Shown here: one piece after another, positions 339 through 64,000 of the stretch
Layout of the letters: every line of letters starts with the position of its first letter
How positions within the stretch are numbered: the first letter of the stretch is position 1
Virus record (IMG/VR): IMGVR_UViG_3300042522_000315
Span: 1-64,000 of that record
Length of the DNA stretch: 64,000 nt
Reading direction: 5' to 3' (one strand)
Source of the DNA: a virus
Made by a program: the position numbers and the translations under genes
Notes under the pieces: generated by a model
Databases searched by the model: none
Seen by the model: only the letters and a program-made list of their open reading frames with translations
What the model was told of the DNA's origin: nothing

Positions 339-1214
339 ATGATGGCAACTTCCGTATACTTCAATAATTTTTCACCTTCTGATATCAATGAAAATTTTCT
401 TCTTGAAGATTTGATAATCGAATCAATTCAAATCATGGGTCATGATGTCAAGTATCTACCAAGAGAAGTTTATGATTCCGCTGATGATGTTCTTGGTGAA
501 AGCGTAAATTCAAAGTTCAGCAGAGCATATACCATAGAAATGTATCTGGCTAACGTAGAAGGTTACGAAGGTGATGGTGACTTCTTTTCTAAGTTTGGTC
601 TTGAAATTCGAGACACATCAAACTTTGTTGTATCAAGAAGATCATTTGAAAAATATGTACCTTCAAATACAGCAATCAGACCAAGAGAAGGTGATCTGTT
701 GTATGTTCCTTTGTTAAACAAGATATTTGAAATCAAGTTCGTAGAAGAAGAATTGATGTTCTTCTCGCTTGGTAAAAGAAAACCATATATGTATGAATTG
801 CGTTGTGAAACATTCCGTTACAGCAATGAAAACTTTGATACTGGTGTTGCAGAAGTTGATGATATTGAACATGTGGTATCTTATTCTATTGAGATGAACT
901 TAGGCACAGGTTCTGGTAATTTCATACAAGATGAAATTGTGTATCAAGGTGCTAATCTTGCATATGCTTCAGCAACGGCAGAAGTGAAGAACTGGAATCC
1001 TGGAACAAAGATATTGCAGATTATCAATATTGCAGGCAATATAAGATCATCAATAAACGTTATTGGTGTAAGTTCAAATACAAGATACAATGTCATATCG
1101 TTTGATGACATGTCTGATCTCATTGAATACGATGATTCTGATAATCGCGTTATACAAAACGAAGCTAATACATTCATTGATCTATCAGAGATCAATCCAT
1201 TCGGGATGCCGTAA
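339..1214 (+). CDS. gp14: neck protein gp14
   Basis: ESIQIMGHDVKYLPRE, FSKFGLEIRD, RPREGDLLY and terminal SEINPFG; synteny. Confidence 0.92.
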   Translation: MMATSVYFNNFSPSDINENFLLEDLIIESIQIMGHDVKYLPREVYDSADDVLGESVNSKFSRAYTIEMYLANVEGYEGDGDFFSKFGLEIRDTSNFVVSRRSFEKYVPSNTAIRPREGDLLYVPLLNKIFEIKFVEEELMFFSLGKRKPYMYELRCETFRYSNENFDTGVAEVDDIEHVVSYSIEMNLGTGSGNFIQDEIVYQGANLAYASATAEVKNWNPGTKILQIINIAGNIRSSINVIGVSSNTRYNVISFDDMSDLIEYDDSDNRVIQNEANTFIDLSEINPFGMP

Positions 1215-60096: not shown

Positions 60097-60416
60097 TTAT
60101 TGGTCAAGACTATAAGTTCCGTGATGATATGAAGGACTATGATACAGTCCCTATTGAAATCTTGATTGAGCCTTGGAATGGCGTTATACTTCGATACGTA
60201 CAAGTATCAGTTAAGGAACTGGAAAACGATAGTGCGGTTCTGCAATTCTCATATGATCTACTTGATATGGGTAATCATACAGAGACTAATCTCAGACGAA
60301 GCAAAAAGTTTGAAGAGTTTGCAGGATTGATTTTGAACCATATGATTTTGGAGGTTTCTGAGCATGTCGCAGCTAAGTCTGGAAAAGACGATATTGAAGA
60401 GTTTGTTGAGGAATGA
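60093..60416 (+). CDS. gp40-like head vertex assembly chaperone
   Basis: Position between uvsX and gp41; IEIL....GV..RY..V. Confidence 0.6.
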
Positions 60417-61746
60417 AAACTATTGCCGCAAAGTAATACCATTTCTCAAGAGTGAGTACTTTTCGAATGAAGACAAGGTTCTTTTTGAACAGATCAATGA
60501 CTTCATTCTGAAGTATAACAAACGACCTACTGCTGATGCTCTAGAAATTGAAATCAATTCTCTAGTTAAGATTACCGAAGAAGAAGTTAAGGCATGTAAG
60601 AGTGCCTTAACTTCCTTTGACGAATCCAAAGAAGAGACATCTGAAGAATGGCTGATTGATAAGACAGAGACGTTCTGTCAAGAGAAGGCAATCTATCAAG
60701 CAATGATGTTATCCATTGAAATCATGAATGGACAAAACAAGACACTTGGTAAAGGATCTATTCCTCATGTATTGACCGAAGCACTCTCAGTTTCATTTGA
60801 CCCAAATATCGGTCATGATTTCTTCCAAGATGTAGAAAAGCGATATGATTTCTATCATAGAGTAGAAGAACGTATTCCGTTTGATCTTGAGTTCTTCAAC
60901 AAGATCACCAAAGGTGGTTTGCCCAAGAAGACTTTGAATATCATTCTTGCCGGTACTGGTGTCGGTAAGTCTCTTGCTATGTGTCACTTTGCTGCTGCCA
61001 ATCTAACAATTGGTAAGAATGTTTTGTACATCACAATGGAAATGGCAGAAGAAAGAATTGCAGAACGTATTGATGCAAATCTTCTTAACACAGCAGTTGA
61101 CGATCTAGAGAAGATGCCAAAAGATTTGTATGAGAGAAAGGTTGCATCTCTCAAGAACAAGACCAATGGTAAGTTGATCATCAAAGAGTATCCTACTGCA
61201 TCTGCTTCGTCTCAGCATTTCAGAACTCTGCTAAATGAACTGAGATTGAAGAAGAGCTTCGAACCTGATATCATCTATATCGACTATCTTAACATTTGTT
61301 CCTCTGCTAGAATGAAAGCTGGACCTAATGTTAATTCTTATACGTTCATCAAAGCAATTGCAGAAGAACTAAGAGGTCTTGCAGTCGAGTTTGATGTTCC
61401 AATTATATCTGCTACACAAACTACAAGAGGCGGCTACTCAAATTCAGATGTTGGTCTTGAAGATACATCGGAATCATTTGGTCTGCCAGCGACTGCCGAT
61501 TTCATGTTTGCGTTGATCAGCACTGAGCAACTTGAAGACTTAGGTCAGATCATGGTGAAGCAATTGAAGAACCGATACAATGATCCGACAACTAACAAGA
61601 GATTTGTCATTGGTGTAGATAGACCTAAAATGAAACTGTATGATGCTGAAGCTTCTGCACAAAATGATATTGCAGACAGCGGTCAAATTCAAATGCCTAA
61701 CAAGACGAACGACAAGAGAGACAAATTCAAAGGTATCAAGGTTTAA
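60364..61746 (+). CDS. gp41: replicative DNA helicase gp41
   Basis: AGTGVGKS, TMEMAEE, IKEYPT, IDYLNI, SATQTTR, SESFGLPATAD, QLKNRY. Confidence 0.97.
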   Translation: MSQLSLEKTILKSLLRNENYCRKVIPFLKSEYFSNEDKVLFEQINDFILKYNKRPTADALEIEINSLVKITEEEVKACKSALTSFDESKEETSEEWLIDKTETFCQEKAIYQAMMLSIEIMNGQNKTLGKGSIPHVLTEALSVSFDPNIGHDFFQDVEKRYDFYHRVEERIPFDLEFFNKITKGGLPKKTLNIILAGTGVGKSLAMCHFAAANLTIGKNVLYITMEMAEERIAERIDANLLNTAVDDLEKMPKDLYERKVASLKNKTNGKLIIKEYPTASASSQHFRTLLNELRLKKSFEPDIIYIDYLNICSSARMKAGPNVNSYTFIKAIAEELRGLAVEFDVPIISATQTTRGGYSNSDVGLEDTSESFGLPATADFMFALISTEQLEDLGQIMVKQLKNRYNDPTTNKRFVIGVDRPKMKLYDAEASAQNDIADSGQIQMPNKTNDKRDKFKGIKV

Positions 61747-63027: not shown

Positions 63028-63039
63028 AATGCGGAGTTG

Positions 63040-63186
63040 ATGATGACACACATTGACATGGACGGCAAACGCTGTAAGTCTTGTGAAAAAGGTCACTATA
63101 AAGAAACCTCTTTGTGGGATGACTGGGACGGCAAGCTGCATTGTTCTAAATGTGGTCATGAAACAAAACGATACGTAGAGAAATAA
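63040..63186 (+). CDS. small zinc-ribbon protein (not in the supplied ORF track)
   Basis: GGAG Shine-Dalgarno; CKSC...DDWDG.LHCSKC, 48 aa. Confidence 0.6.
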   Translation: MMTHIDMDGKRCKSCEKGHYKETSLWDDWDGKLHCSKCGHETKRYVEK

Positions 63187-63295: not shown

Positions 63296-63472
63296 ATGAA
63301 CGAATGGTTTGATAGAGGATGTTTCTGTGTTACATGGGTAGGTTTCATGTGGATTGTAGATATGCTGTTGAGTAACACTGGTGTTATCACATATAGTGCA
63401 TTGATGATTGGTGCTGTTACACTTGTTATCATAGGCCTAATCAGGCAATACTGGGCGAGAGTGACGGAATAG
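63296..63472 (+). CDS. small two-TM membrane protein (not in the supplied ORF track)
   Basis: GAGGA Shine-Dalgarno; 58 aa with two hydrophobic stretches; 3' end overlaps tRNA-Leu(CAA). Confidence 0.5.
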   Translation: MNEWFDRGCFCVTWVGFMWIVDMLLSNTGVITYSALMIGAVTLVIIGLIRQYWARVTE

Positions 63473-63539: not shown

Positions 63540-63580
63540 TTGACAACCTAATAAAATCCTGCTAGGATGTTGTATAAATA
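63540..63580 (+). promoter_or_regulatory. tandem sigma70-type and late promoters
   Basis: TTGACA-17 bp-TAGGAT followed by TATAAATA (63573-63580). Confidence 0.65.
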
Positions 63581-63604
63581 GAATACAGTTTAAGAAAGAC
63601 GAAA

Positions 63605-63685
63605 ATGAAACATTATTACCCATTCACGATTAATCAAGAGACACGCCAGCCAGCATGGGCAGGTGTGATGAGGGGTTCTATGTAG
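63605..63685 (+). CDS. putative attenuator leader peptide MKHYYPFTINQETRQPAWAGVMRGSM
   Basis: 26-codon ORF between the promoters and a terminator; its last codons contain GGGGTT, complementary to the terminator 5' arm. Confidence 0.55.
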   Translation: MKHYYPFTINQETRQPAWAGVMRGSM

Positions 63686-63712
63686 TTAAGTCATCGTAAA
63701 GACTTAGTTTTT

Positions 63713-63748
63713 AAAACCCCGAAGCGAAAGTTTCGGGGTTTTTCTTTT
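63713..63748 (+). terminator. intrinsic terminator (attenuator candidate)
   Basis: AAAACCCCGAAGC-GAAA-GTTTCGGGGTTTTTCTTTT. Confidence 0.9.
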
Positions 63749-63758
63749 AAAAAAGTGC

Positions 63759-63787
63759 TTGCAAAGACCGAATCAGTGTGATATATT
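63759..63787 (+). promoter_or_regulatory. sigma70-type early promoter
   Basis: TTGCAA-17 bp-TATATT with a TGn extension. Confidence 0.7.
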
Positions 63788-63815: not shown

Positions 63816-64000
63816 ATGCTGAAGATCGAATTCGATACGACTGACTTCGAACTGGCTCACGGTCGCAAACCCCGCGGTATAGGCGGTTGGGCTTTTAGTG
63901 AAACGCGAAATCCAAAGTCTATGGAAGACGTAATCTGGATTCGTGGCACGTATACCGAAGCGAAGAAGCAGCTTATAAACAAGCTGAAGAGCGAAGGTGT
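63816..64000 (+). CDS. hypothetical protein (3' truncated by window edge)
   Basis: GAGGAG Shine-Dalgarno; MLKIEFDTTDFELAHGRKPRGIGGWAF..., open to the window end. Confidence 0.6.
   Translation, partial: MLKIEFDTTDFELAHGRKPRGIGGWAFSETRNPKSMEDVIWIRGTYTEAKKQLINKLKSEG

Follow-up and report, generated by a model that had tools for sequence, protein, structure and literature searches.

Large arrays of tRNA genes in phages are thought to offset a mismatch in codon usage with the host or the destruction of host tRNAs; to our knowledge, the control of their expression is largely unknown. The tRNA region of phage T4 also encodes stable small RNAs of unknown role (species 1 and 2, rnaC/rnaD). Among bacterial systems, the classical ribosome-mediated attenuators are known to fold to the terminator when the full-length leader is considered. 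In resistance leaders of the erm/cat type the mRNA is remodelled when a ribosome stalls on the leader (PMC5118997), and rnTrpL of Sinorhizobium meliloti is described as an attenuator RNA with an additional, trans-acting function as a small RNA (PMC6614838).

The DNA analysed here (the window, 64,000 nt in length) constitutes the initial 64 kb of a virus contig with a length of 84 kb (IMGVR_UViG_3300042522_000315). It encodes a gp41-type helicase at 60364-61746, whose nearest database matches are T4-like phages, and the DNA runs holding the stretch were sampled from lakes and one river; the source is an uncultured freshwater T4-like phage. Within its large tRNA cluster lies a leader module (63540-63748) which, from its sequence and modelled folding, we read with a probability of roughly 55% as a ribosome-mediated transcription attenuator of the leader-peptide type, situated before the main tRNA block of the phage. 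A full-text literature search and Rfam yielded no account of an attenuator in front of the tRNA genes of a phage. A translated leader with a choice between terminator and antiterminator in front of the array would provide a simple cis-acting link between translation performance and tRNA supply.

The tRNA genes located 5' of the module are Arg-like, Leu(UAA), Met, Ile(UAU) and Leu(CAA), with about 25 more located 3' of it, past the end of the window (including Asn, Lys, Asp, Pro, Trp and Ala). The identification of these downstream genes as the main tRNA block fits the idea, put forward in the initial annotation, that the module governs rescue genes. Other elements were also observed within the cluster. 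Two tiny ORFs lie between tRNA genes (window positions 63037-63186 and 63296-63472), both with a good Shine-Dalgarno sequence, unlike the leader ORF; one encodes a 49-aa, four-cysteine, zinc-ribbon-like protein (weak Pfam hit) and the other a 58-aa hydrophobic, membrane-like protein. A gene for a GIY-YIG homing endonuclease (SegE-like, phrog_314) is found between tRNA-Asp and tRNA-Pro (G000:C1:64579-65187; L001 4579-5187), an insertion resembling segB of the T4 tRNA region.

The module is arranged in the order of promoter, 26-codon ORF, covarying hairpin, GGGGUUCU, small hairpin and 13-bp terminator (Table 1), and direct inspection of the sequence located every previously annotated feature at its given position.

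Table 1. Features of the leader module and of the DNA which follows it (window coordinates).
Feature	Position	Strand	Remark
Sigma-70-type promoter: TTGACA (63540-45), 17-nt spacer, TAGGAT (63563-68) with TG upstream	63540-63568	+	10/12 match; -35 box and spacing conserved in relatives
T4-late-type promoter motif TATAAATA	63573-63580	+	Kept in 11/15 copies; CTAAATA in 4/15
Purine-rich 5' UTR (UAAGAAAGA...)	63591-63604	+	Weak Shine-Dalgarno at best
Leader ORF, 26 codons (MKHYYPFTINQETRQPAWAGVMRGSM); ATG at 63605, TAG stop at 63683-85	63605-63685	+	Open in all 15 relatives
Region 1 (CCC.UUCA), can pair with region 2	63619-63626	+	Helix 86.6% of cells paired; few double changes
ORF-internal hairpin, CACGCC (63642-47)/GGTGTG (63662-67) (CACGCC.GCC/GGC.GGUGUG)	63642-63667	+	Candidate pause or structural hairpin
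Region 2 (GGGGUUCU), last codons of the ORF, putative 5' strand of antiterminator	63672-63679	+	Always the best upstream partner of the terminator 5' arm
Nested small hairpin, UAAGUC (63687-92)/GACUUA (63701-06)	63687-63706	+	Between regions 2 and 3
Intrinsic terminator: region 3 (63713-25), GAAA loop, region 4 (63730-42)	63713-63742	+	13-bp stem
Terminator U tract	63743-63748	+	Sequence
Next promoter: TTGCAA, 17-nt spacer, TATATT with TG upstream	63759-63787	+	A promoter is present here in all close relatives
Start of 72-aa ORF, no known family	63816-64000	+	Runs to 64034, then tRNA block

Two promoters had been claimed for the module, one of sigma-70 type and one late. The former is present, and so is the TATAAATA motif on which the latter was based, but in the divergent relatives L108 and L109 a TTGACA-17 promoter, i.e., one of sigma-70 type, has this motif as its -10 box. 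Among loose ends of the DNA runs there are also relatives with TATAAAT as the -10 box of a TTGACA-17 or TTGATA-17 promoter. The window has a separate TAGGAT -10 box 4 nt upstream of TATAAATA. The weakness of the Shine-Dalgarno sequence of the leader, already pointed out earlier, was borne out: it consists of GGA or GAA at a distance of 2-3 nt from the ATG, and L089 and L096 lack it, with other genes of the same phage possessing GAGG-type sites. A distant copy (L111, see below) has a similar UUAAGAAAGA at the same spacing before the ATG.

The element was found to be conserved in approximately 23 contigs of IMG/VR and JGI, representing 15 distinct sequences, on the basis of six scans of IMG/VR (five by pattern, one anchored on a protein) and one JGI metagenome scan. 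Two independent patterns (one for the 3' part of the ORF, the other for the hairpin/terminator side) returned identical loci; a third independent pattern added the divergent members L108 and L109, and the JGI metagenome scan with a 5'-UTR pattern added one further close copy, L106. A pattern for the exact terminator gave zero matches in IMG/VR, and three pattern matches (L107, L110, and L113) were discarded as chance matches in coding DNA. The conserved unit extends from TATAAATA to the U tract (63573-63748), and the element is located between tRNA-Leu(CAA) and tRNA-Asn(GUU) in all 14 loci checked. Searches of the GenBank phage collection by blastn and megablast, using the region, 20 kb around it and two distant copies, returned only tRNA or gp41 matches, with no further similarity of the module region in that collection, the T4 small RNAs included; no cultured relative in it carries the element. 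A neighbouring 88-aa protein has 118 homologues, and a scan of GTDB genomes with this protein returned nothing. When a covariance model (R1) was run on 50 further gp41-relative records there was no match, all of these being fragments of ≤25% completeness without the tRNA cluster.

The leader ORF is open in each of the 15 distinct copies, with 26-28 codons, an invariant ATG and a stop codon (TAA, TAG, or TGA) whose position is kept within one codon. Its length is 78, 81, or 84 nt, i.e., the copies differ by whole codons only, while indels of 1, 2, and ~15 nt are found outside of it (in the UTR, the loops and the terminator). Variable stop codons number seven in the other two frames and none in the frame of the ORF, and in a column-permutation test all 15 ORFs were free of stops in 218 of 5000 permutations. 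An open frame maintained in this manner, in these 15 close copies and also in two distant ones, is a feature of leader-peptide attenuators. Conservation of the ORF had been suggested as a check on the initial reading; the frame is kept in all copies, with hardly any constraint on the peptide. Variable columns are distributed over the three codon positions as 13/10/12, without an excess at the third, and codon variants comprise 9 synonymous and 32 replacement changes. The pN/pS of the leader between clades is ~0.6-0.9; for the window compared with L012, pS is 0.38 and pN/pS 0.72 in the leader vs. 0.78 and 0.28, respectively, in gp41. The purifying selection of an ordinary micropeptide gene was not detected in these comparisons. 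It seems from the aligned copies that openness of the frame is selected and that the peptide sequence is hardly constrained, with selection seemingly acting on nucleotide blocks and on the open frame. Such a pattern would be expected of a regulatory leader ORF; it is at odds with a gene for a micropeptide and with an RNA that is purely non-coding. No run of a single regulatory codon, as is usual in amino acid attenuators, is found in the leader, which agrees with the earlier statement to that effect and extends it to 15 copies; its codons of note are a single invariant UGG and AAU-AAU or AUU-AAU.

These data bear on an alternative in which the module is a self-contained small gene with an ordinary terminator, its product being a structured RNA of ~110-170 nt (trans-acting or dual-function) or the 26-aa peptide, and any read-through being leakage. 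The conservation of nucleotide blocks, synonymous sites included, exceeds what a peptide would need and is in keeping with such a gene, as is covariation in the internal hairpin (see below). However, a plain peptide gene is disfavored by the pN/pS of ~0.7 and the lack of third-position excess, and a pure non-coding RNA by the fact that the frame is kept. We consider the small-gene explanation unlikely, although further evidence on both of its sides appears below.

Some other ideas on the leader were set aside. A type I toxin was dropped as the leader peptide is hydrophilic. A specific match between leader codons and the downstream tRNAs was dropped as trivially true, because that block holds nearly all tRNAs of the phage, and an enrichment of His, Tyr, Asn, and Asp codons was dropped since their share is approximately that usual for proteins (rough estimate). 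With regard to the stop codon, the copy of the window is the only one in the family which ends in TAG (63683-63685); were this codon read through, the leader ORF would be extended by 31 codons, across the terminator, to a TGA. Among + strand ORFs of ≥100 aa, TAG is used in 3 of 85, TAA in 44 and TGA in 38. A tRNA with anticodon CUA, of amber-suppressor type and with an encoded CCA end, is present beyond the window (G000:C1:72333-72406; L001 12333-12406), and no CUA tRNA was called among the relatives checked.

The central feature of the attenuator reading is that the ORF ends in codons complementary to the terminator 5' arm. Region 2 is the best upstream partner of that arm in 15/15 copies (-10.5 to -16.6 kcal/mol), the pairing being of 8-9 bp in 12 of these (-15.5 to -16.6 kcal/mol); in most copies GGGGUUCUA pairs with UAGAACCCC. 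Seven copies were subjected to a shuffle test. In four, all of the 8-9-bp type, 0/500 shuffles were as good; values for L108 and L109 were 11/500 (-13.1 kcal/mol) and 28/500 (~-12 kcal/mol), respectively. The pairing in the window (GGGGTT at 63672-77 with AACCCC at 63715-20) is the weakest of the family, with 6 bp, -10.5 kcal/mol and 20/500 shuffles as good, which is marginally above chance. The stop codon follows region 2 by 0-5 nt in the copies and overlaps it in L111.

On the window alone, such marginal complementarity would allow the terminator to be a plain one, ending the transcript of the first tRNA sub-cluster, with the ORF and the complementarity being present by chance. In the 18 kb examined there are two strong + strand terminators only, the other lying just past the last tRNA, and that of the module is the sole one across the run of tRNA genes, as might be expected of such a terminator. 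However, the ORF is separated from the upstream tRNA by a consensus promoter, conservation over all 175 nt of the unit is far higher than at gp41 synonymous sites, the ORF is retained, and in relatives the complementarity is matched by 0/500 shuffles, which makes coincidence very improbable. The small-gene explanation likewise leaves unaccounted for, in most copies, the 8-9 nt with which the ORF ends and which are complementary to the terminator 5' arm.

Covariation between the GGGGTT and AACCCC segments had been proposed as a further check, and its outcome is mixed. The pairing is kept or partly compensated in divergent relatives, but most of its pairs never vary and so neither support nor contradict the helix, and the covariation rests on very few events which are related and not independent. 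In favor of the helix, the ninth pair, which lies outside the terminator stem, is changed from A-U to G-C in L108 and L109; this compensated pair is another observation that a small gene with an ordinary terminator does not explain. Against the helix, the same two copies have an uncompensated mismatch at pair 6, and in the window a terminator pair changed from G-C to A-U is compensated in region 4 and not in region 2.

Folding was also compared between the two alternative structures. The antiterminator stem-loop (region 2, nested hairpin, and region 3), when folded alone, has -20 to -26 kcal/mol vs. -19 to -22 kcal/mol for the terminator in 13 of 14 close relatives; the respective values in the window are -15.5 and -19.8 kcal/mol. 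In transcripts cut before region 4, the minimum-energy fold contains the 2:3 pairing in 16/17 cases, and this pairing is lost from the folds of cut transcripts when a 28-nt ribosome footprint is imposed with the stop codon in the A site. In these models, the cut transcripts behave in line with the layout put forward in the initial annotation. The full-length minimum-energy fold contains the terminator in almost every tested case. The models thus contain an antiterminator which is exclusive with the terminator and could be masked by a ribosome, as in leader-peptide attenuators, the version in the window being the weakest.

The intrinsic terminator, a further component of leader-peptide attenuators, has in its stem 6 G-C pairs followed by UUUUUCUUUU. 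Three of its pairs are changed on both sides among relatives, and the nested hairpin has a conserved stem with one pair changed on both sides and a variable loop; alignments from the covariance model lean toward the model's own structure. Within the ORF-internal hairpin, two pairs covary through a series of C-G, U-G, and U-A. As these changes cause radical amino acid swaps (R to C, V to M), they point to selection at the RNA level. The RNA of 63576-63750 has a folding energy of -50.3 kcal/mol (z = -4.99). A further 5' helix, AUAGAA/UUCUAU, is doubtful since its bases form the promoter -10 region in several relatives and would be untranscribed there. A 151-nt contig from a freshwater metatranscriptome spans 63607-63757 with 4 differences and crosses the terminator; it was not used as evidence, as contigs cannot show transcript ends and the library may hold DNA.

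A switch between terminator and antiterminator could also be run by a factor other than the ribosome, the candidates being a protein (of phage or host), a tRNA or some other RNA which binds AAUAAUCAA/UCAUGGG or the internal hairpin, with the ORF being secondary. Such a factor would be compatible with the conservation of the alternative pairings, the weak Shine-Dalgarno sequence and the retention of the AAUAAU(CAA) and UCAUGGG motifs even in the distant copies L111 and L112, where they are kept at the nucleotide level and in the same codons. However, 17 copies, those with ORFs of 29 and 37 codons among them, retain the frame, the ATG and a stop directly behind region 2, features which a ribosome-independent switch would not need. 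Furthermore, the module has no match to any Rfam 15 family, T-box included; only tRNAs reach the thresholds, and the best overlapping hits are at chance level (Yfr10 with 27 bits where 43 are needed, rnk leader with 23 where 55 are needed). For the same reason a T-box or riboswitch was dropped. Control by a non-ribosomal factor appears improbable.

The attenuator reading also requires that genes downstream depend on read-through, and here the close relatives and the distant copies differ. The earlier remark that the next gene has its own promoter (63759) was found to be correct, and every close relative likewise has a promoter after the terminator. This conserved promoter renders the downstream genes independent of read-through, which in the clade of the window would only add transcription. 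The proposed layout is backed by comparison, in that the ORF is open, the stop is suitably placed and the pairing is kept, but dependence of the downstream genes on read-through does not hold in this clade. The unit after the terminator is also variable, with a 72-aa ORF in the window (no Pfam or PHROG match) and other sequence in L007, L008, and L012. A strong promoter and a terminator of its own, the promoter that follows in all close relatives and the varying neighbor are together what would be expected were the module a small gene in itself.

Some further conserved elements were seen in this region. In many relatives a palindrome, (G)CATAGCAG(C/A)TATGC, with an operator-like look, is found right after the terminator (L012 13540-13560; L108 ~1000-1020, minus strand; L109 9948-9968; L007 2490-2506; L008 5350-5366), ~30-40 nt ahead of the promoter that comes next (GACTTGCAGG or GACTTGAAA ... 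TATAGT or TATATT). It is absent from the window, which has the 72-aa ORF unit in its place. After the variable unit, as the first element before tRNA-Asn, there is a conserved stretch (G000:C1:64046-64290; L007 2620-2840; L008 5020-5250), which contains a perfect long inverted repeat (ATTCTACTTTCGTCAGTAGTCAC ... GTGACTACTGACGAAAGTAGAAT) around a tRNA-like cloverleaf.

An arrangement without an intervening promoter, which is absent in the window and its close relatives, was identified in the two distant copies. Model R1, run on five gp41-relative records, gave matches only in the two that are complete genomes (L111 and L112), with ~21 bits and E ~0.002; with such scores, homology rests partly on the reading of the layout. 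Both matches are situated within a tRNA cluster and share the layout. L111 has a perfect TTGACA-17-TATAAT promoter, a UUAAGAAAGA-type UTR and an ORF of 29 codons containing DNQSW. GGGGUUU is located near the stop, the long antiterminator stem takes in the stop codon, and the terminator is formed by AAACCCCUAG/CUAGGGGUUU. A tRNA-like gene begins 1 nt past the T tract, and tRNA-Ser and tRNA-Cys come after it, all three preceding the next promoter. L112 has a promoter and then an ORF of 37 codons containing NNGSW; its GGGGUCU pairs with GGACCCC, a pairing which reaches 2 bp beyond the terminator stem, and tRNA-Glu lies 90 nt after the terminator with no promoter detected between them. The tRNA genes behind these terminators could be transcribed only through the terminator, as an attenuator requires, and the small-gene explanation offers no reason for such promoterless tRNA genes. 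The tRNA-like gene of L111 (1633-1720, distant phage G001) has a long extra arm and scores 35.5 bits on the tRNA-Sec model; no call was made by ARAGORN.

On the attenuator reading, transcription would start at the 63540 promoter and/or at TATAAATA, giving a nascent RNA in which the last codons of the 26-codon ORF (GGGGUUCU, region 2) are complementary to region 3. When uncovered, region 2 would pair with region 3, the nested hairpin helping, and this antiterminator would block the terminator so that polymerase proceeds to the tRNA genes. A ribosome at the stop codon, 4 nt past region 2, would occlude region 2 and the 5' arm of the nested hairpin, upon which the 3:4 structure would form and transcription stop at 63748. 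A ribosome stalled earlier in the ORF would leave region 2 free, or free it from region 1, with read-through as the result. In this scheme, translation of the ORF, the conditional nature of termination and the identity of the signal are inferred. As to the signal, it is possible, though doubtful, that the leader acts as a general sensor of translation capacity, a mixed-codon ORF left unfinished giving read-through into the ~25 tRNA genes. Possible triggers would be the depletion of host tRNAs or their cleavage by anticodon nucleases or other defence systems, and the module would in that event form a feedback loop replacing the tRNA pool on demand. It would then be the first known case of attenuation of tRNA genes, and the first of a leader-peptide attenuator in a viral genome.

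When the locus is compared with the systems described, its location recalls T4 species 1 and 2, which are likewise small RNAs within a T4-type tRNA gene cluster. These are processed from a tRNA precursor and have no conserved ORF and no promoter and terminator pair of their own. As with rnTrpL, the terminated leader transcript of the module, which carries a small ORF, could have a function of its own as a small RNA, and this would fit the strong conservation at the nucleotide level and the promoter of its own; there is no sequence relation with rnTrpL and no target or seed region was identified in the module. The erm/cat leaders are similar in that the signal would be an unfinished short leader ORF, not a shortage of one amino acid, making for a general sensor of impaired translation. 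However, these leaders mostly unmask a ribosome-binding site (translational attenuation) and need a drug-specific arrest peptide, whereas the output of the module would be transcription termination and it has no known arrest motif.

The enterobacterial attenuators (the trpL, hisL, pheL, thrL, leuL, and ilv leaders) have no sequence similarity to the module, which differs from them in lacking a regulatory codon run, in having phage tRNA genes and not biosynthetic enzymes downstream, in the extra hairpin within the antiterminator and, in the clade of the window, in the promoter after the terminator. It resembles them in its leader ORF, in the 1:2, 2:3, and 3:4 pairings with 3:4 as terminator, and in the location of the stop codon, at which a terminating ribosome would mask segment 2. 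From the stop codon it is ~57 nt to the terminator end, and the trp leader has a similar spacing and similar helix energies.
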